Origin: Schmidtea polychroa
Taxonomy: Eukaryota
Assembly (NCBI GenBank): GCA_044892525.1
Contig: CM097885.1
Location: 17,300,001-17,364,000, forward strand
DNA length: 64,000 nucleotides
Direction: 5' to 3'
A model generated the notes under the pieces. That model saw only the letters and a program-made list of their open reading frames with translations, ran no database searches and was not told the origin of the DNA. Below, piece by piece: positions 1 to 14,900 of the stretch; within the stretch, counting starts at the first letter, position 1; the number at the start of each line of letters is the position of its first letter. The position numbers were made by a program, and so were the translations under genes.

Positions 1-148
1 TAAAGTTTTTCCACTACCAGTAGGACAATTTGATAAACGGCATCATTTCTTAATTCCATCTTAATTAATCTAATTTCATTAATATTATTGTTTATATTTG
101 TTTAAATTTAATATTATAAGTATATAAAAATTATTTAAATTTTATTAC

Positions 149-595
149 ATGACTTCATTATTATTGAGCAACATTAATTATAAAGATAAGTGTTTAGTCA
201 AAAACATGAAATTCCCATTAGGTAAACCCCAACAAGTTGTGGATAGAAGTGGGATGTATCCAATTATATTTTTCAAGTTGGGTAGATGTCGGATAATGGG
301 ATGCAAGCAACCTCTTAAATTAGTTGATTTGAAATATAAGATACAAGATTTACAAATTCAGTCCATTACAGTAACTGCTGATATCGAAAAATTTATAAAT
401 TTATACGAATTACAACATAAAACTAAATGTGTGTTTGATCCAGAAATATTTCCCGCCTTACGTCTTCAAAAATATAATCCAGTTTGTGTTAATGTATTTT
501 CAAGCGGGAAGGTTTTATTACATAGAATAAAAACTTTAGAATATAATCACTATGTAGAGAACATTATCTCAGAAATTAAAATGTTAATTAATTAA
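149..595 (+). CDS. Divergent, minimal TATA-binding-protein-like protein (148 aa, intronless)
   Basis: C-terminal half QIQSITVTADIEKFINL...FDPEIFPAL...VNVFSSGKVLL matches TBP repeat 2 (KIQNMVGSCDVKFPIRL...YEPELFPGL...LIFVSGKVVL). IIFFKLGRCRIMGCK resembles the end of a shortened repeat 1. Confidence 0.75.
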   Translation: MTSLLLSNINYKDKCLVKNMKFPLGKPQQVVDRSGMYPIIFFKLGRCRIMGCKQPLKLVDLKYKIQDLQIQSITVTADIEKFINLYELQHKTKCVFDPEIFPALRLQKYNPVCVNVFSSGKVLLHRIKTLEYNHYVENIISEIKMLIN

Positions 596-637
596 TTAAT
601 TTTGTTTGTATTGATTTTGTTTTTAGTAATAAGAAAA

Positions 638-1024
638 ATGTCAAAAGGTAAAGAATATATTTTTATTTATAATTAATAATCTTTATATCTAGTTTACTTA
701 TTTGAAGTAATTTTAAAGAAGTTTCAAGAATTATACCCAGGAATAAGAAATACCATAGATTATTGTGCACCAGAGTTACTTATAAATAAAATATTTCGCT
801 TAACAGGTATTAATATAGAACAACTTTTAGAGTTGCACTACGTTATGGTTCTGAGGTCTGACACTAGATGCATTGAAAATTGTATTGTTTGCAAAGATTC
901 TATGAGATTGTCATGCCCCAATGGGTGTCCATGCTGTCACGACTTTAAAAGGGATCAATCAGTTCATATCTTATTAGCTGAAATGCGTAAAGCATACTAC
1001 ACAGATGTATTTAACTTGAAATAA
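638..1024 (+). CDS. Small Cys-rich hypothetical protein (~113 aa); exons 638-647, 693-1024
   Basis: ATG TCA AAA G|gtaaag...atctag|TT TAC: a 45-nt GT-AG intron puts the ATG in frame with ORF 833-1024. C-terminal cluster CIENCIVC...CPNGCPCCH; AATAAA overlaps the stop codon. Confidence 0.55.
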
Positions 1025-1657
1025 AATGTTTTATATAATTTTTAAATTTTTAATATTATCTGTGTGTGAATTATAACCGAGTGGTTATCACATTCATTGT
1101 CATCATTATAGTACTCGGGTTCAAATATATGTATGTATGACGTTTCTTATATAATTATAATACAATAAATATATATCTATAATAAAATTATAGAATTATG
1201 TAACACCATACCACCCCCTGGGTACCCATACAAATATTACGTAATAATATATATCCTGAGATATTTGGTTTGGTTTATACTCCTCACTTGTCACTACTCT
1301 ATCAAAATGTATAGAGTTTTTCCTGAGATATTTGGCTTGGTTTATACTCCTCACTACTCTAATAAAGTATAATTATTATGTAAGAGGTCAAAGGTCAATT
1401 ATTATATAAGGGATCAAAGGTCAATTAGTATGCAAGAGGTCAATGGACAATTATTGCACAATGGGGTCAGATAGGACATGAAATTAAAAAATCAAATGTT
1501 ACGTAAACAACACATCATTACATCGCCTTATATACGATTACGTAATTTTACAGAATTATGTAACACCATACAACCCCAGAGTACCCAATCAAATATTACG
1601 CAATACTGTATATCCTGGGATATTGGAATTGGTTTATACTCCTCACTTGTCACTACT

Positions 1658-3116
1658 AATGAAATTTTTCAGATGTTTGAAGTAACGAAGATTCCGTATT
1701 TTAATATCCTCAGTATAGATTTTGATTTTGGAAACAAATGCTTTCCATATCTCATAAAGCTCCATAACCGTTTGTCCAACACCTTGCAGATGTAAATTAA
1801 ACTCGCCGAGGTGAGCTATAAAACATAAGTTTTATAAGCCACTGTGTGTCTTCAAGTTCGGAATATCTTCCAGATTTTTCTTCCAAAAAGACTTTGATTG
1901 AGTCGAAGCATCCAACAAACCTTTCCAGAACTTTACCGCAACTTAGCCATCCAACGTTGCGGTGAAGAGGTATGTGCTGATATGCACTCTCCATCTCTTG
2001 AAGTAAAGCTTCGAACTGTCTTTTTGTTAGAGAAGAGCGTACCACAAGAAAATTTACAATTTTAGATACGGTAGACATAACATTGTTAAGATCGGTTTTT
2101 GAAATCTTTGCACAAATACTCTCTTGGTGAATAATACAATGAAACTTTAAAATGGGGTGGCTAATCTTTTCTTCAAGTAAATTGACGAATCCATTTAGCC
2201 TACCTACCATGGCAGGAGCACCATCTGTCATAACAGCAAATATCTTGATGTCAATTCTTCTTTCTTCAAAATGATCGATAAACGTTTTTAAAATATCTTT
2301 TCCCGTTGTATTACCATGCATAGATTCGTGACAACATAACTCCTCACGCATTTCAGTATCACTGTGTCTAGTTACAATTGCCAAACGTGGTATCCCGTTT
2401 ATATCAACACTCTCATCAATTGCTACATTCAGGACGCTAGCATTCCTTAACGCATCAGTGTGCTGTTCTTTTATATTCTGAACCATTTCTGTAATGCGTC
2501 TCTCAACCGTCCTAGCAGAAGTAGGTATTTCTTTTATCCTTGAAATACTTATGTTTTTATTGGGAAGATGATCAAACAGCACCTCAGAGCACTTGAGGAA
2601 AATCTCTTTAATATAACCACCGCTTTCCAAAATTTGCAATACACTGTGAGATTTTGTAGCTAGCTTCAGTTGCTTGATTTTTTCTACCGATCATGTTTAC
2701 AAAAACGTTTGTTTGCTTCTCATAGCGAGCCACATCATTTTTAATAGATTCATTTTTTTCTGCCTCACACTTAAAGGATCCTTTGTGTTTTGTTTCAAAG
2801 TGACGCTTTACTTGACGTTCTAACTACAACAGTTTCGATTATTTTTTAAAATAAACCCGTAATCTGTTGTCCAAGAAGACTGAAATTGGCGAATATCAAA
2901 CTTCATTTTTTTGGAATACGCCATAATGGGTATTTAAATAATAAAACAAGTTTAATATTTGAGTAAATAATTATGGCAGTAAAAATGAAATTAACTAAAC
3001 TTATTTACTATTTAATGATTAAATTTCTTTATCATTATTTTTTTCATTATTAGTAAATTTAATAAATCACTTCGAGTGCCAAGTTTGGCACGCGTGCCGT
3101 AGGTTGCCGACCCCTG
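1658..3116 (-). mobile_element. hAT (Charlie-type, GTF2IRD2/EPM2AIP1-like) transposon, frameshifted and 3'-truncated
   Basis: Terminus CAGGGGTCGGCAACC on the minus strand at 3116. ORF 1797-2639 has AIDESVD, MTDGAPAMVG, HCIIHQE and GWLSCGKVLERF motifs. Reading frame is broken at both ends. Confidence 0.85.
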
Positions 3117-3150
3117 GATTAAAGGGAATACATGTCACCAAAAATAAATT

Positions 3151-3193
3151 AGCCAATCAGAGAGTAATTACAAAATTTATTCAATCCGATTGG
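3151..3193 (+). promoter_or_regulatory. Possible paired CCAAT boxes upstream of the LicD-family gene
   Basis: AGCCAATCAG at 3151 and reverse CCGATTGG at ~3186, 75-115 bp upstream of the ATG at 3268. Motif match only. Confidence 0.3.
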
Positions 3194-3267
3194 ATAATCA
3201 TCATCAAAACATCGAATACTTTGGAATTTCACATTTTATACGACAAATTCTTTGTTTGGAATTTTCA

Positions 3268-4842
3268 ATGAAAAATTACAATCTATTCTTCGTCACATTT
3301 TCTTTAATTATTATCTGTGTTTTTTATACTGTATGGAGAATAAATACGGTATATCTAAATGCTCAGAATTCAACGAGAATATCTCCGAACATTTCACTAA
3401 AGTTGACGACAAAAATCAATAATAAGGAAACTTATTTTCACAGAAGAATGTCAAATTCTCAAGTCTTTGAGATGTTGGAATTGCTTCAAGTTTTCATAAC
3501 TTTATTGGATAGATCTAATATAACATACATCGCATACGGAGGAACTCTTATTGGTATCTATCGACACCACGGGCTGATCCCTTGGGATGATGATATTGGT
3601 AAATTTTACCATTTTTATTCATTTATCATTTTGATTAATAATTTTCATTATAAAAATTAATAAAGATAAAATAAATGTGTTGGGTATTTTGTGTAAGTCG
3701 AGTAGGTAGTTAGTGGCTTACGGCAGCAATAGGGGGGGGTAAAAAATGTTGCAAACTTTTGATTGCATAACTTTTTCCGTAGACATTTTTTGATTACATA
3801 ATTGTTGCCGTAATGCCCAATGTTTTCTGGGATTTTAAATACAAAATTTTTTTTTTTTTTTTTTTCAATAAACAAGCCAAGGATAAATATTATTTGGGTG
3901 GGTCTCCTTGGTCCTGAGAATTTCAATAGAAAAAGGTAGTCTTCAATAAAAAAGCATGGATTTTTCACACTATAGTGAGGGGATCTTCTTGGTCATGAGA
4001 ATTTCAATAGAAAAGGTGGTTTACATTAAAAAACGCATAGTAAATTTTTAAAATAAAGCAAATTATGGGTCTAAAATTTAAAAATAAAGTAAATGATGGG
4101 TCTAAAAATTTAAGTAAATCAAGGTTCAGATTTATTTTTGAAATAAAGTAAATTATGGTCTAAATAAGTAAATTATGGGCTAAGATTTTTCAATTAAAGT
4201 AAATAATGGTTCTAAAAAATTAAATTACAGTAAATTATGGTCCAAATTTTTAAATTAAAGTAAATTATGGTTCTTAAAAATTAAATTAAAGTAAATTATG
4301 GTCAAAATTTTTGAATTACAGTCCAAAAATTTAAATTAAAGTAAATTATGATCCAAATTTTTAAATTAAAGTAAATAATGGTTCTAAAAAATTAAATTAA
4401 AGTAAATAATGGTCCAAATATTTTAAATTACAGTAAATAATGGTTCTAAAAATTAAATTACAGTAAATAATGGTCAAAAATTTTAAAATTAAAGTAAATT
4501 ATGGTTCTAAAAATTAAATTAAAGTTAATTAAGGTCCAAATTTTAAAATTAAATAATCAATGGTAAAAAAAATTTAAATTAAAGTTAAATAAGTAAATTA
4601 AAGTAATAATTTTTAAATAAGTAAATTAAAGTAATGTAATAAGTAAATTAAAGTAAGATTTTTAAATTTATTAACAAAAATAGAAGGTGTTTGAGAATTG
4701 AAATTTTTTAATGGAAATTTTAATGAATTATTTTTTAAGTAATTTTTAATAGAAATTTTTATGAATAATTTTCAATGGTAATTTTTAATGGAAATTTTAA
4801 TAGAATAATTTTTAAGATAATTTTTAATGAAAATTTTTATGA

Positions 4843-4886
<44 letters not shown>

Positions 4887-7800
4887 TAATATTAATAATA
4901 TATCAACCAAATACTATACAACACATAAAAAATTAACTAAACACATAAAAATAACTAGACACATAACAAAACATATAAACATTAACTAAACACATAAAAA
5001 TGAACTAGACACATAACAAACATAAAAATTTACCAAATAACAAATGTAAAGATATAAAATTTATTCAATAAAATTAGTCCTCATCGGACAAAATAACGTC
5101 ATCGATATCGATGTCATCTTCTCCAAAATCTTCATTTAATTCTTCCTCATCTTCTCCATCATTTTCTCCAACATTTTCTGAAACATTTTCTGCAACAATT
5201 TCTCCAACATTTTCTCCAATATTTAATTCACTTAATCTTACATGCCCATATGCAAGACTAGTATTTTTCCCCACCAAAACCCTTTTGTCATCTTTGTTAG
5301 TTAGTGCTATTTTTGTGTTTTTAATTGTAAAAATTTGATGATTTTTGCTTGTTATTTTAGTCTGAGGAACCGAAAAAATCTGGTTAGTGTTATAACAATC
5401 CAGGTATGACTGATGTTTTATGTCACTACCTTTCAATGTTACACCTTTAGCCTTTTTTGTTTCCTCATCACCCAACAAGCTATAACATTTAGGTCTAAGA
5501 AAAACCCACTCCTTATATTTAAGACCTTTATTCTCGTCTTTGAACTTTCCAATGACTGAATCAAGGTTCTTACTATATAAGGAATGACAACTATTGTAAT
5601 TGGAAGTATCCAATAAATTATCTCGAACCATTGCAGGTAAAAGAACCTCAAGTTTGCAGTTAATGACTTCGAGGAAAAAAGAATCTGTATCACCTGCAAC
5701 GATATTAATTTTACAATTAAACTCATTGCGAAATGATTCCAGATCCTTATATTGCAATTCATACATTCTAAGTTTAGATAGATCAAGTACAGATTGACCA
5801 ATGTAACTCGGTCTATCTAAACATATAGAATCGGAATTCAATAGTGCTGCAATTAAATTATCTGCTATTTTAATAGATTTTTTAAAAGTCGGTTTTGACG
5901 AATATTTAACTAATTTACCGGCAGTTGTACAAAGACGAAGATTCATTCTTCTCTTTAAATTTTCAACTGTTTTGCCGTATAAACTATTATTTAGCAATTT
6001 ATAATAATTTTTATCTAAGCTATTTACGCTTTTTGATCTTAATTCGGTATTTGTATCTATATATATTTTAAAAATTGGTGATTGCTTAAATCTTACACCC
6101 CTATTTACACGTGTTACTTTAACACCAAGTTCCAAATATAATTTTAATAATCTCCAATGAATAACATAATTAGATTTTGGAAGATGAGTTAATAATAATT
6201 TTTCAACCTTAGACCCAGCAGGTTTCATTTTTTCAGCAGCTACAGGGAAATCATCCAACTTATCATGAAGCTCAGAAGGAATTACAAGATCAACTTCAAG
6301 TGTGTATCCATAAGACAAAGATTCAAGATTTAAATTCCTACATTCATCCATTATTTTATCAAATCCATCAAGAACCCAACAAAATTCGCCACAAGGTAAT
6401 GATTGACTTAAAGCCCAGCCATAAAGATTATTAATATCTATATATAGTAACTCGGTGTTCTCGTCGGTTTTTACGTAATGCTTATTCACAAAAGTAAGAC
6501 CGCCTCTTATTCCACCCTCATAAAAGCTAAACATTTCGTTTTCCGTTATGAGTTCAATTGGTTCATTTAAAGACATTAATGCAGAAGACCAAGACATGCC
6601 TGGAATTCCGAAATAATTCAATGGTTCCAATCTATTGTGAGCAATGGATTTCAACCGAAACTGATGAAAGAAATCAGCCAAAAGAAAACAATCAAGTTTT
6701 AGGTAGATCATCATATAATCTAATAAAGTTACGCAATTAGTTTCTACCCAAATCTCCTGAGCTTTTTCATACTCAAGCTCAGTGACACCCTCCCAGATTG
6801 GTGGTAATTCATAAGTAGTTTGGAGAATATCTAAAGAAGTGGCGAAATTATAAGGGAAGATTCCTTTTTCACTTACTATGGTGCCAGAAAAAGCAGAATT
6901 AGTAAAAGGCAAAGAATTCAAAGTTTTGACTGCTTTAGCCAAAGAATCATTGACAAATTGATACGAATCAATGAATCTTAGGCTAATTTTACCTAAATGA
7001 GCAATCAAAGATATAAATTTTTCCGTAGTTATTGGGATGCACCCTAAATTCCAATTTTTAAATTTATTTAATCCATATTTAAGTATATGGTGCATATCGT
7101 ATCCCTTCAAGTTGTGAAATACGATAGGCAAAATTTTATTTATTTTTCTATTTACGTTACATGTGCTACAAGCTGCACCCAAGTATTTCCCCGTAAAATG
7201 ATCGTGATCTCTAACAGGATCCACGATAGATTTCAAACAAAGATAACAAACCGTTGAATTAATGAATTGTTGTTGCTCAATTTTCGTTAATTTAATCATT
7301 GGTTTCCTACCCATTTTATAATAAAAAGGAAGAACCTTATTTAATGCTATATCCTCTATAGCACTTAAAAAACTCTCGACGCAATCTAAACCTATAAACT
7401 GCTGATAAGATTTAGATCCGTCAAAGTTATTTACTAGTAAAAGACCAGCAGATATTGGCATGTGTCGCTGAAAATGATCATTATCAGAAGGTAAAATAGC
7501 CTCAAAATCGGCATAAACTACAAAAGGAGGAGTTACTGTTTTCGACCAGTCAGTAAACTGTAAGAATTTATTTTGAGGGAAAGTATAAAGAGTTGTTCCT
7601 AATTGATTACGTTTGCATAATATTTCATGTTTTTCTAGTGCGTTTCTATTATTAAACCCATTCAAACACCGATGGCACCATAATGAACGTATGCGTGTAG
7701 GACAAGTAGTGTTGATACCACAATTCAATAACCTATTTAAATTGCTTATAGCAACGTAATGGAAATTGTTCCCTTTATTTAATAATAGTAAATTAATTAC

Positions 7801-10800
7801 AGTTCCATTTAAAACTTTGGAACGATGTATAATGTCTAAATGTGGGTGTTTTAAAACGTAATTATCTATTAATTGTTTGTTATTGTCATAAGAAAAAACG
7901 TTAATTATTAAACCAGGATTTTTGGCCTCGAATTTTCTAATATCTTTTAATTTCATGGGTAAGTCCAATGGATTATATATTAATTCAGATAAATTATAAC
8001 TGGATGTCCTATTTCTAGCATAACTACTAACCTCATCATATTTTAAAATAGCTAAAATGCTATATAAAAAACATGAATCATCGGTGTTTTTTATATTAAT
8101 TAAACAATATTTATTTTTTAGATAAGTAGGTAGTTCAATGAAACTCCTACCACTTAATCTACTTAGCCTACTTATCTTTGTTATGGTGAAGTGAATTTCT
8201 GTTATTTTTTTTTATGATCCAGCTACTTCCTAACTCTGTGATATTACTTATTTTCTCGTTTAGTTCCCTAATGCCTTCGTCAAAAAATGAGGCAGTTAAA
8301 GGTTTTGCGTAATTCGAAATATTATTAACCTTTATTTCCCCATCTTTTTCAAATTCGATTGTTATTCCGAATTGAATTTTGACGGAGCCTAATTCGTTAA
8401 TAATATCTCGTAATTTTATAATTAATTGTTCAGGAAATATTATTTCCTTTATATTTAAGTCGCTAGTATTTAAACTTAATATTTGATGGGTACCCCTTAG
8501 ATCTTTTTGTATTATGGGAACATTACCCCCTATTTGTATTATATTTAATCCATCCCAAGAATCAAAGGAATTGAATAATCCATCATTGGATTCAACAAAA
8601 GACAATCCAGCCTGGGATTCAACCTCTAATCCGACCTGGGATTCAAAAGAAGAAGTATCTAATTTAATTTTTTTATTTGTATTATTTTTTTCTATAGTTG
8701 ATGGTCTTTTAAAAACACTATCTTTTTTAAAATTAAACCTATCTAAATGATGTTTATGTTTATTATAAAAAACGCTATATGTTACAGGGTTACTAGTCTT
8801 ACATACGGGACATATAAAATATGTTTTATTATAATATTTTTTCGTGTAATAATTCTCCATTATAGAATGGCAATTATTATCATGTTCTTTCGATGAACAA
8901 TAATTTGGATAAAGTATACCTATAAAATAAAAATTTAATAAAAAAATATATATATATATATAATTTAAATGAAATATTTTAATAAATGTTTACGCATAAA
9001 TTTACAAATTTTATTTACTAAAAAAATAAAAATTTACTAAATTAAAAATATTAACATTTAATTAAATAAAAAATTATATTAAATTTCCTTTAAATTATAT
9101 AAAAAAGTAATCAATACTTACATTGTAAATTTTCATTTCGATTTATTGACACATTGACATAATTTTTCTCTTTATTCGTATTACCTAAATTATTAATTAA
9201 TTAAATCAATAAATAAAAAATTATGTTTACTTTTTCTTTTCAAATTTCCTTTAATCTTCGATTTTAAATTGTCTTCATTAATATTATCTAAATTAATTAA
9301 TAAATTAATTAATAAATTAATTAATAAATAAATTAAAATTTACCAAATTCCTGAATTTTTCCTCGAACATTCATAACGTTTTCTATTAAAGAATTCATTT
9401 TTAAAGGTTAACTATTTGTTAAATGTGACTAATAATTGATATTGTTTATAGATTATTATTGTTTATAGATTATTATTGTTTATAGGAACAAATTCTAACC
9501 AATCAAAATCAAGGAAGGGTAGGGAAAAATATATTACGTTGCGGTATTTTAAAATTAAAATTTATTTTAAAAACACATTTTGACGTTAAAGTCGAGTTAT
9601 GTAACAAAGACATAATAAACTTATTATTTACTACAAATATTTCACCTATCAAATACCTAACTAGAGATGCTATATATTGATTGTTCATAAAAGCCAACTT
9701 AATCATAAATTTCTGTATATTATTTTGTAAATTATTTCTGTAAATTAAATTTTGTATATTATTTCTGTAAATTATCAAGTAAATTTAAAGTTCTTGATAA
9801 GGTTAACTGGTTTCTTAGCTTATGTTTTTTTTAAAAAGTTCATCAATGTGTAAATATTCTTAGAAAATTATTGAAAAAAAAATATTTAGTCAAATGCATT
9901 ACAAAGTCATCTAAAATTAAACCAATTACTTAATTATTAACATAACAGTCATTAAAAAAAAATTAATTTTTATTTAAAATTTAACAAATTATCAAGAAAT
10001 TCAATTAAAATCATCATTAAAACTTTAAATTTTTTAATAAATCAACATGAAATTCTTAGAAATATGAAAAAAAAATATTATTACAAAGTTATATCCTATC
10101 ACATGATTATTAACCTGACTGTCATTAAAATAATTTTTATTTAAAAAAAAAACCAATCAATTAAAATGCATCCAATTATCAAGAAATTAATTAAATTTAT
10201 TTAGAACTAACTTAAAATTTTTAAATATTCATTCAATCCACATGAAATTCACGAAAATGATAAAAATTCACAAAAACCATCAACTCTAAAAAAAATAATT
10301 ACTAATGAATACCTTAAACACCAAAATTTATCTAAATAATCTTTCAAATTAATTCATTAAAATTGAAGACAACACGCTCTATTTTGTCATTACATTCAAT
10401 TAAAATTAAATAAATCAAGATAAGAACTTTGATAAAAAATATTATTCTAAAATGGTAAAAATTAACACTGTAGTGTTAAATGAAAAGGTAATTATTCTTT
10501 AAATCTAATTAACTTAGTCATAATTTTCTTTAATTTAACTCTTTATTTACTTAATTTAGTCCTTGTTTACCGAAAATAGAAGTTTAAAATATAGACCATT
10601 GATTACTTTAATTTAAAAATGTATCCCTTAATTTACATAATTTCAATCTAAAATTATTTCAAAAAATTTTTTCTAAAATTTTCATTGAAAAATATTTCAT
10701 AAAAATTTTCATTAAAAATTTTCATTGAAAAATATTTCATAAAAATTTTCATTAAAAAATTTCAATTCTCAAACACCTTCTATTATTTTGTTAATAAATT

Positions 10801-11932
10801 TAAAATCTTACTTTAATTTGCTTATTACATTACTTATTTAAAAATTATTACTTTAATTTACTTATTTAAAATATTTGACCATTGATTACTTAATTTAAAA
10901 ATTTGGACCTTAATTTACTTTAATTTAATTTTTTAGAACCATAATTTACTTTAATTTAATTTTTAGAACCTTAATTAACTTTAATTCAAATTTGGACCTT
11001 AATTTACTTTAATTGAAAATTTTAGACCATAATTTACTTAATTGAAATTTTAGACCTTAATTTGCTTATTTATCTTTAATTTACTTAAGTTTGTTGCAAC
11101 TTGTTTTTTTTTTTTGTATTGAAAATTCTAGAAAAAAAAAATAATACAATTGCGTAATAATACAAAAAAAAATACAACAAAAAAAACTAGTTGCAACAAT
11201 TGCGTAATCAAAAGTTGCAACAAAAAAAAGTTGCAACAAAAAAAAAGTTGCAACACCCCCCCCCCCTCCCCGGGGGGGGGGGTAATTGTTGCAGTGGGCT
11301 ACTATCTACCTACTATAAACATCGCCTGAGAAATGAAAATTTTTTCAATGACAATTTTACATTAAAATTATGGTCTAAAATTTTCAATTAAGTAAATTAA
11401 GGTCTAAAATTTTCAATTAAGTAAATTATGGTCTAAAATTTTCAATTAAGTAAATTAAGGTCCAAATTTTTAAAAAATCATCAAATTTTTACAATTAAAA
11501 ACACAAAAATAGCACTAACTAACAAAGATGACAAAAGGGTTTTGGTGGGGAAAAATACTAGTCTTGCATATGGGCATGTAAGATTAAGTGAATTAAATAT
11601 TGGAGAAAATGTTGGAGAAATTGTTGCAGAAAATGTTTCAGAAAATGTTGGAGAAAATGATGGAGAAGATGAGGAAGAATTAAATGAAGATTTTGGAGAA
11701 GATGACATCGATATCGATGACGTTATTTTGTCCGATGAGGACTAATTTTATTGAATAAATTTTATATCTTTACATTTGTTATTTGGTAAATTTTTATGTT
11801 TGTTATGTGTCTAGTTCATTTTTATGTGTTTAGTTAATGTTTATATGTTTTGTTATGTGTCTAGTTATTTTTATGTGTTTAGTTAATTTTTTATGTGTTG
11901 TATAGTATTTGGTTGATATATTATTAATATTA

Positions 11933-11988
<56 letters not shown>

Positions 11989-14900
11989 TCATAAAAATTT
12001 TCATTAAAAATTATCTTAAAAATTATTCTATTAAAATTTCCATTAAAAATTACCATTGAAAATTATTCATAAAAATTTCTATTAAAAATTACTTAAAAAA
12101 TAATTCATTAAAATTTCCATTAAAAAATTTCAATTCTCAAACACCTTCTATTTTTGTTAATAAATTTAAAAATCTTACTTTAATTTACTTATTACATTAC
12201 TTTAATTTACTTATTTAAAAATTATTACTTTAATTTACTTATTTAACTTTAATTTAAATTTTTTTTACCATTGATTATTTAATTTTAAAATTTGGACCTT
12301 AATTAACTTTAATTTAATTTTTAGAACCATAATTTACTTTAATTTTAAAATTTTTGACCATTATTTACTGTAATTTAATTTTTAGAACCATTATTTACTG
12401 TAATTTAAAATATTTGGACCATTATTTACTTTAATTTAATTTTTTAGAACCATTATTTACTTTAATTTAAAAATTTGGATCATAATTTACTTTAATTTAA
12501 ATTTTTGGACTGTAATTCAAAAATTTTGACCATAATTTACTTTAATTTAATTTTTAAGAACCATAATTTACTTTAATTTAAAAATTTGGACCATAATTTA
12601 CTGTAATTTAATTTTTTAGAACCATTATTTACTTTAATTGAAAAATCTTAGCCCATAATTTACTTATTTAGACCATAATTTACTTTATTTCAAAAATAAA
12701 TCTGAACCTTGATTTACTTAAATTTTTAGACCCATCATTTACTTTATTTTTAAATTTTAGACCCATAATTTGCTTTATTTTAAAAATTTACTATGCGTTT
12801 TTTAATGTAAACCACCTTTTCTATTGAAATTCTCATGACCAAGAAGATCCCCTCACTATAGTGTGAAAAATCCATGCTTTTTTATTGAAGACTACCTTTT
12901 TCTATTGAAATTCTCAGGACCAAGGAGACCCACCCAAATAATATTTATCCTTGGCTTGTTTATTGAAAAAAAAAAAAAAAAAAAAATTTTGTATTTAAAA
13001 TCCCAGAAAACATTGGGCATTACGGCAACAATTATGTAATCAAAAAATGTCTACGGAAAAAGTTATGCAATCAAAAGTTTGCAACATTTTTTACCCCCCC
13101 CCCCCCCTATTGCTGCCGTAAGCCACTAACTACCTACTAAGTCGGTATTACTGTCTGACTCTTTTGTGTTCTTTTCAAAATAAATAAACGACCCAACACA
13201 AAATCTTTATTTAAGACCGATATAGTTACACTTTAGTTACACTTTTTATTAATTCAACCACACCTGATGCAACCCTTTTTGGTCTGCACTTTTCAATCAA
13301 TCTCACACAGGGATAAATCTTCCAACTGGAAATGTCCCTTTCTGGTACGTTCGATTTAAATTATTTATTTCCTACTAACTTTAACGTTTTTTGATCGCTC
13401 TCACTGAACTTCTTGTTTTCTTTTTCTTCGACCAACTGGCAATTTTGTTTTCTTGCCAGTTGCTTTTATACCCACTTGGTAATTGATTTTATTTTGACAA
13501 ATTCGTCTGGATCTAACTTTCCCCCGGGCTTCCTCTTGTAACTCTAATTCGCTTTCAGGAAATTGCTCCAATTTAATTTTATTTGGCTAATTTAATTGCC
13601 TTCCCAAAATTGGATTGCAAATTCCGGTTCTCTCAAATCGGTCGGGTTCTTCATTAGTTAATTAATTTTTAATTAATTTTTGTTTTTTGTAATTTATTCC
13701 TTCTAGGGACCCCCCATTGATTTTATTTTATTATAGTTGAACTCGTCTCATTATTTAGCATCCGCCAATACCAGTTTCCCCCGGAAGATATTCATTTTCT
13801 CATTTTGTATTTTAAATTTTTATTTTGAATTTGGTGTTTTTATCGATTTTTACCTCAATTTTTGTGCCTCTCCTGTTGAACCCCAACAAATACAAAAAGG
13901 TTTGAGCCTCACTATAAAATTTGATAAATATATAAAAAAGTATATTGGAATTTGAAATGAAAATAACATTGATAAAGTTGACTAAAAATAGCGTAAAATA
14001 TGAAAAATATAATAATGAGTAACGGTAAAATTTGCACGAAAATGTCTAAATAAAGACTTCTATATTTTGTCACTTTTGATCTGTTTTTATTCGCTTTTAA
14101 TATTTCATTTATTTTTATTACGATTTCAAAACAAACCTTCTTTTCTCGATGTAACTCAAATTTTCGGCAATGCCTTTTTCAATTATTATAATAATATTTA
14201 AAAAGGTGGTACCGAAAATTTATGTTACAGACAAAGCCAGCCACAGAAATTTGGTGGGGGGGCAGGAAATATAATTATGACAGAAAAAATATTTTCTTAC
14301 ATGTTGTATCATATTTATGAATACACCTAAATTCGAAAGACACCAACCGGCAATTGATTATCATCGAATGGACATTGATTTCGCTTTTTATAATGTAAAT
14401 ATTAACTTACCTATAATAAATGTGTGTGTGTGTCATAGCCAGAAGTGACATTAAATTAGCTTTGTGACATTAAATTAACAATTACACTATAGAAAGAAAG
14501 AAAATATCTTTGTTGGAAGGAAAATAAATAAATACACACAAACACGGTTCACAAAATTTCTATCATAAAAAATACACACAACAGGACATTGATTAATCCT
14601 ACGGACATTTAATAAGCTAAAAATTACAATATTAAAACAATTAATTATAAAAATATGTATGAGAATATCTCAGAAGCTTCTTCAGAATAAACTATTCCAT
14701 TTCAAGAAATTCATAAATAAATGCTCTTTCAATATATGGACGAACAAGAGATTCGGTAGATCACGAGTAGGCAACCGAATTTACAGTAATGTACCGACAA
14801 ATTGAGGTCCCAATATTTCTCTGGTTTTGGCAATTTCCAAAGATGAGCCAATCCATTCACAAATTATTATTGACTCTTTTAAAAATGAATCATACCGAAT

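Follow-up and report, generated by a model that had tools for sequence, protein, structure and literature searches.

The window analysed here, the whole 64,000-nucleotide stretch of the Schmidtea polychroa assembly (contig CM097885.1), lies on the largest contig of an AT-rich genome of 781 Mb with four large chromosomes. It contains a 9.4-kb element (3701..13138) with AG...CT ends, in which nothing is recognisable except a gene for a DNA polymerase B of the protein-primed type (pPolB). The left boundary reads ...taagtcg|AGTAGGTAG at 3701 and the right boundary reads CTACCTACT|aagtcg at 13138; the presence of aagtcg on both sides (chance match of the 6-mer ~1e-4) bears out the ends and the 6-bp TSD proposed in an earlier note on this DNA. 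Of the traits of Polinton/Maverick elements, which were reportedly described from animals by Kapitonov and Jurka in 2006, the element displays the AG...CT terminal inverted repeats, the 6-bp TSD and the protein-primed DNA polymerase B, and it lacks the retroviral-like integrase and the packaging ATPase, protease, and major and minor capsid genes. The features of the element are listed in Table 1.

Table 1 Features of the element and its flanking duplications (window coordinates).
Feature	Position	Strand	Description
Left TSD aagtcg	3695..3700	+	6 bp
Left inverted-repeat copy	3701..5346	+	AG terminus, G run, subterminal ~30-bp repeats, AT-rich 3' region, final 276 nt of pPolB region
pPolB catalytic part	5074..8211	-	open frame of 1045 aa with exonuclease and polymerase motifs and an endonuclease VII-like insert
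N-terminal part of polymerase gene	8168..8989	-	other frame than catalytic part here; single 1207-1327-aa frame in several sisters
AT-rich non-coding spacer	8990..10560	.	matches the two arms of palindrome L026/L027 at 99-100% identity
Inner array of TIR-like repeats	10561..11091	.	~80% to subterminal repeats; unique junction cuts array at ~11091
Remnant of ~300-bp double-ended mini element (loop of sister palindromes)	11092..11314	-	terminus identical over 42 nt to full-length L141 and L144
Start of original right arm (inverted loop flank)	11315..11472	.	ends at unique deletion junction, 2-nt microhomology
Right-arm outer part, surviving	11473..13138	-	92-codon 3' remnant of second pPolB copy + terminal repeat ending CT
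Right TSD aagtcg	13139..13144	+	6 bp

The catalytic ORF matches PF03175 (E 4e-30) and, weakly, endonuclease VII in Pfam; certain strings within it we take to be the exonuclease motifs and polymerase motifs A, B and C. The polymerase frame of this copy is broken near 8200, between the N-terminal and catalytic parts, so that the replication competence considered in the earlier note is not supported for the window copy. The N-terminal part, out of frame here, is predicted to be the terminal-protein/vOTU (priming) region, following the accessible part of PMC11161782. The same note had recognised pPolB as the single gene and had seen no integrase, ATPase, protease or capsid ORF, and both statements stand: none was found in the element by the ORF list and Pfam, and locus L031 (window 9580-13020) yielded zero tblastn matches to the core proteins of a related Polinton. 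In the region 9000-10560, including the portion (9400-10560) singled out for profile searches, the sole frame of at least 70 aa spans 91 aa (9509-9784) and has no Pfam match. A motif at 9530-9560 of this spacer matches the tandem subterminal repeat in the TIR of another Polinton family (B1) and may represent a regulatory site, common to both, that lies upstream of the polymerase.

The two copies of the inverted repeat (3701-5346 and 11473-13138) are identical at 1646/1646 aligned bases, with zero substitutions, the right copy being longer by 20 bases in three homopolymer/microsatellite runs. Thus, the near-identity of the repeats reported earlier holds, but their description as plain TIRs does not: the final 276 nt of the pPolB region lie within the 1.65-kb repeat, which is therefore an arm of a fold-back structure.

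Comparison with the rest of the genome shows that the element belongs to a palindromic family. Exact genome matches to the terminal 30-mer number 139 in forward and 139 in reverse orientation, and the first 300 bases of the element were matched at 97-100% by 40/40 scored candidates (1561 candidates). Each of the 10 sisters retrieved over its full extent is a giant palindrome, 7.4-16.4 kb in length (mostly 11-16 kb, near full-element size), with arms of 3.7-7.3 kb and loops of 0 to ~1.7 kb; each arm carries an inverted pPolB, and each of the 10 is flanked by its own, different, perfect 6-bp TSD. The arms of a sister differ at up to 54 sites, and the loops differ too. Inside the ends of these 10 sisters, no match to capsid-like, ATPase or integrase proteins was detected, and for 25/25 window-type ends no integrase was found within 20 kb. 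Among the best 150 matches to the polymerase C-terminus (at least 150 exist, all at 99-100%), 106 form 53 inverted pairs. Polymerase-only content is supported as a trait of the family.

The relative abundance of the palindromes was estimated with two markers, namely, a 24-mer common to all 36 polymerase copies at hand and an integrase 24-mer common to 11 full-length copies, which have 1103 and 313 genome matches, respectively. Among the first 100 polymerase markers by position, 60 form 30 inverted pairs, none of which contains an integrase marker, and 15 of the other 40 have one of 13 integrase sites at a distance of 8-16 kb, such that palindromes are about twice as numerous as parents in the sampled stretch (30 vs. 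13). By extrapolation, the genome would hold a few hundred palindromes.

In the subfamily of palindrome L026/L027, the loop is an element of ~300 bp that is bounded at either side by a Polinton end and has inverted flanks (gtttat|AG...CT|ataaac), a structure observed in 9/9 further loci as well as in L026; for one such inner end plus its flank, there are 45 exact genome matches. A second subfamily shows the same loop geometry with another inner element (cagtag|AG...CT|ctactg), the ends of which match Polinton family B2, and in L015 the turn lies within the polymerase and there is no loop. The window copy is colinear with L026/L027 at 96-100% through the polymerase, the spacer and the inner repeats, and contains a second Polinton terminus, ending at 11314 and slightly different from the outer end. 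Missing from it are ~5.6 kb of the right arm and the left part of the loop (a few hundred bases of the centre), and both deletion junctions show 2-nt microhomology.

The right-arm junction has a single match in the whole genome, and none of the 39 other scored candidates (of 40) convincingly crosses it. Other copies with short right arms (L151/L118 and L152/L099) have different junctions and their own TSDs, and accordingly, the one-polymerase appearance recurs through independent loss rather than by descent. The single-gene 'mini' unit of the earlier note is therefore not borne out, nor does its layout recur with different TSDs; the recurring form is the two-polymerase palindrome. A one-off deletion derivative, which that note had listed as grounds for abandoning its proposal, is indeed what the window copy is, although its direct parent is a palindromic polymerase-only element and not a full-length Polinton. 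The intact ends, the TSD and the one long pPolB frame, together with the description of cytoplasmic linear plasmids as Polinton derivatives without the morphogenetic module (in the accessible part of PMC11161782), would be compatible with a self-standing 9.4-kb single-gene mini-Polinton or linear-plasmid-like replicon, but the uniqueness of the junction in 781 Mb, the 92-codon remnant of a second polymerase in the right arm, the colinearity with L026/L027 and the frame break between the N-terminal and catalytic parts render such a replicon highly improbable. The window copy itself is an ordinary decay product.

Long inverted repeats are difficult to sequence and assemble, and the palindromes could in principle reflect mirrored reads or graph errors, or else the missing 5.6 kb could be a collapsed palindrome. 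Among the contig pieces listed (32 of 6581; four public runs), none bridges 11473, although both sides are covered, and identical breaks occur in both arms of palindromes; conversely, the private TSDs with unique flanks on both sides, the terminus and polymerase clade specific to palindromes, the differences between arms (up to 54 sites) and those between loops all speak against an assembly artefact, which we regard as distinctly unlikely. For the family, an artefact is improbable; the deletion of the window copy is more exposed, and a local assembly collapse at 11473 is a possible cause of its missing arm. Parts of the stretch are contained in 19 rows of public runs from 7 studies, with no RNA run listed among them.

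A polymerase frame of at least 1200 aa is present in at least one arm of 27/53 palindromes. The frame has the same length in both arms of 37/53 pairs, including 9/14 pairs in which the catalytic part is interrupted by a break private to each, and variants that are private to an element or recombinant are present in both arms. This likeness of the arms fits arm-to-arm copying in replication, later gene conversion, or assembly polishing. Because the arms are kept alike, their identity is a weak clock; accordingly, the identity of the window repeats stands as an observation, but the 'probably recent' insertion that had been read from it carries little weight.

To characterize the parents, 40/44 unpaired polymerase matches were retrieved (the other four being the window, one known palindrome and two on small contigs). 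Full-length Polintons were found at 11 of the 40 loci, a near-complete second inverted polymerase at 10 and a partial second polymerase at 5; the remaining 14 are shortened, interrupted or without clear structure within 10 kb. The full-length locus L113 encodes, according to Pfam, an rve integrase (in a split frame), a Pox_A32 ATPase, an adenoviral protease and a TBP-like ORF. Certain proteins of the full-length relatives are, by position and motif, presumably capsid proteins; these had no match in Pfam or PDB. Over the whole length of the gene, the polymerases of nine full-length copies show 95-97% DNA identity to that of the window. Among 10 full-length end pairs, four have a perfect TSD and one a 5/6 match. 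The termini of full-length elements differ from the outer end of the window element, and those of L141 and L144 are the same as its inner end over 42 nt.

Thus, the missing genes do reside in sister elements, as the earlier note had suggested might be found: integrase, ATPase, protease and capsid-like genes are all present in full-length relatives (11/40 loci). The note's further proposal, a segment of a multipartite element, in which no molecule would hold all core genes, is not supported given full-length parents with a nearly identical pPolB, and an obligate multipartite system is ruled out by them. The palindromes derive from one end of the parent genome, as in snap-back genomes, the window copy being a partly deleted form, and they combine parent-like ends, missing core genes, an autonomous parent in the same genome and independent insertions, as non-autonomous Polintons do.

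In a phylogenetic tree of 36 rows, 25/27 palindrome-type polymerases, including that of the window, form one clade (support 100/98), which suggests that most palindromes trace back to a single founder whose lineage multiplied separately from the parents. Two palindrome-type polymerases (L093 and L121) fall outside the clade, the palindrome label needing two changes on the tree, and the full-length L145 lies near it; the palindromes may thus have multiple or recombinant origins.

The pN/pS ratio was 0.21 in 9 full-length copies and 0.43 in 18 palindrome arms; it was 0.23 for shared variants and 0.79 for singletons. Of the 46 shared variants, 22 also occur in full-length copies, mostly within one tract. 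After the alleles common with full-length copies were removed, 9 synonymous and 15 non-synonymous variants were left within the palindrome lineage, and purifying selection was not evident. Hence the apparent selection signal in this lineage may have been imported by recombination. Polymerase codons ~98-354 of L013, L022, L028, L030 and L115 form a tract of shared variants, many of them also present in full-length copies, which suggests recombination between the parent and palindrome lineages.

Taken together, these observations make it probable that the window element is a deletion copy of giant pPolB-only palindromes, for which the likely route is copying as fold-back genomes, followed by insertion through an integrase from full-length relatives in the same genome. 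Protein-primed genomes replicate by strand displacement, and the fold-back model builds on this feature; to our knowledge, replication of Polintons has been modelled but never observed. In the model, a short element with Polinton ends would have become nested in the polymerase half, creating an internal inverted repeat; a displaced single strand would fold back on this repeat, and its 3' end would prime copying of the whole arm to the terminus. Nesting followed by fold-back copying would yield inverted loop flanks (gtttat|AG...CT|ataaac) rather than a direct duplication. The founder would then amplify as a separate lineage, with priming at its two identical ends and re-copying of the arms on each other, and the integrase, perhaps along with polymerase and capsid proteins, would be supplied in trans. 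The nested-end step is not universal: L015 lacks the inner end, so that some palindromes turn at other points or have lost their centre later. From their gene content, the palindromes, known here as integrated copies, would replicate in a free, helper-dependent form. Given the private TSDs and the lack of an integrase within 20 kb of the 25 window-type ends, integration in trans, which the earlier note had envisaged, is supported as the simplest reading, the parent being the most likely source of the integrase. The parent enzyme would then recognise the window-type terminus, which differs from those of the parents at several positions (Polinton end motifs are discussed in PMC8097293, in the part of that article available to us).

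A scan for Pox_A32 returned three other candidate helpers, all of which were rejected: family B1, with a pPolB 61-64% identical in amino acid sequence to that of the window and different termini; a distant family, with a pPolB 27-28% identical; and an old remnant beside the element, which belongs to another family. The distant family, with a PF21738 capsid and a pPolB 27-34% identical to that of the window, is represented by L055-L058 and L090 (C3:134.88-134.91 Mb) as an inverted pair of near-complete gene sets, the arms being 81-95% alike. In family B2 (G000 loci L157-L170), 8/14 loci have no pPolB and contain instead ~4 kb of shared non-coding DNA (90-93% alike), and 5/14 carry a third polymerase type, ~60-67% identical to those of B1 and of family A, that of the full-length parents; B2 termini match the inner ends of one subfamily of the polymerase palindromes. 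Fold-backs of the integrase/ATPase end occur in both B1 and B2 (L074-L083, L168, L054/L051), several with TSDs, and turn within the integrase or a capsid-like gene, or past the polymerase. One B2 fold-back (L078/L079) appears to be nested in an A element, as it has repeats of family A to its left and the 3' region of an A-type polymerase to its right. The ATPase is present in at least 150 copies with 99-100% identity.

The palindromes might alternatively form part of a cooperative, de facto segmented system, with polymerase-only palindromes as the replication segment and polymerase-less elements carrying the integrase, ATPase, protease and capsid genes as a second one. A polymerase-less lineage indeed exists, given that the 8 of 14 B2 loci without pPolB retain capsid-like, minor capsid-like and (upstream) ATPase genes; moreover, in 3/3 B2 inverted pairs the integrase end, devoid of pPolB, takes a palindromic or fold-back form, B2-type termini are found in the loop of many polymerase palindromes, and a frame of at least 1200 aa survives in at least one arm of 27 of the 53 palindromes. 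In AAV, 5' and 3' snapback genomes are described as helpful to the parent virus in the accessible part of PMC8235507. However, both lineages include autonomous parents (11/40 loci in A and 5/14 in B2); 9 of the 14 palindromes broken in the catalytic part have equal frames in the two arms, so that the palindromes seem able to do without a working polymerase in cis, unless later homogenisation made the arms alike; and purifying selection is not evident once the alleles shared with full-length copies (9 synonymous and 15 non-synonymous variants remaining) are set aside. We consider a segmented system unlikely. Equally, there is only a slight chance that the Polintons of this animal have split into complementary modules that integrate separately, with self-complementary replicons holding the polymerase alone and integrase/capsid elements devoid of it, and that exchange termini and replicate each other, a heritable, chromosomal stage toward a segmented DNA virus or linear plasmids.

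Fold-back copying of polymerase-only palindromes with an integrase in trans remains the preferred reading, and several known systems can be compared with it. The accessible parts of PMC8097293, PMC6431247 and PMC11161782 describe animal Polinton/Maverick elements that, like the present family, have AG...CT ends with short repeats, a 6-bp TSD, long TIRs and a protein-primed family B polymerase; the palindromes, in contrast, have no integrase, ATPase, protease or capsid genes, and the whole element is one inverted repeat with two polymerases and an inner pair of Polinton ends. The 5' and 3' snapback genomes of AAV, as presented in the same portion of PMC8235507, are likewise palindromes of one genome end with the replication gene, and counterparts from the other genome end are present here too (family B2). 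Unlike AAV snapbacks, the Polinton palindromes are chromosomal, with TSDs, heritable and present in many copies, and are protein-primed rather than dependent on a hairpin and Rep. Polinton remnants in C. elegans, consisting of pPolB1 and a TIR without integrase at 10 loci, share the polymerase end devoid of integrase, but are described as partial, and the accessible text of PMC11414722 reports no palindromic two-polymerase elements with their own TSDs. Linear plasmids are also pPolB-bearing, capsid-less Polinton derivatives, although they are extrachromosomal and non-palindromic and do not integrate with TSDs. The short terminal palindromes of PLVs and virophages are a different feature, judging by the available portion of a 2026 preprint (10.64898/2026.07.28.741278). 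The closest protein relatives elsewhere are unnamed metagenome proteins, 50-61% identical, and none was found in viral contigs. The palindromes work like a snap-back defective genome and are a non-autonomous Polinton derivative, neither an autonomous Polinton nor a multipartite virus.

It is the palindrome family, rather than the window copy alone, that gives these elements their interest. With their private TSDs, the integrated fold-back genomes preserve, like fossils, a record of a panhandle step in single-stranded form and of an integrase acting in trans, and the fold-back model predicts that denatured DNA snaps back, that linear palindromes occur free and that one arm is corrected from the other. 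Polintons, snap-back defective genomes and polymerase-plus-TIR remnants are already known; among the openly accessible papers on palindromic, integrase-less or planarian Polintons, we found no account of integrated two-polymerase palindromes. The presence of many 10-16-kb inverted repeats in the chromosomes bears on genome stability, production of double-stranded RNA and assembly quality. Planarian Polintons are piRNA targets, according to the accessible part of PMC8532177.

The surroundings of the element are themselves composite. Immediately to its left, an older Polinton from a related family, now broken, has its end (window 128-1700 and L071); a TBP-like ORF (128-595; PF00352, E 4e-10) is part of it, and remnants of its ATPase, integrase and capsid-like genes lie upstream of the window. 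A TBP-like gene adjoins the ATPase in this old remnant as well as in families A, B1 and B2 (L051, L113, window 128-595). The minus-strand ORF remnant at 1797-2890 has no significant Pfam match and is presumably DNA transposase-like. A probable host exon at 3148-3660, with a LicD-family match (E 3e-9), is followed by GT at ~3598, and the element may sit in an intron of this LicD-matching host gene.
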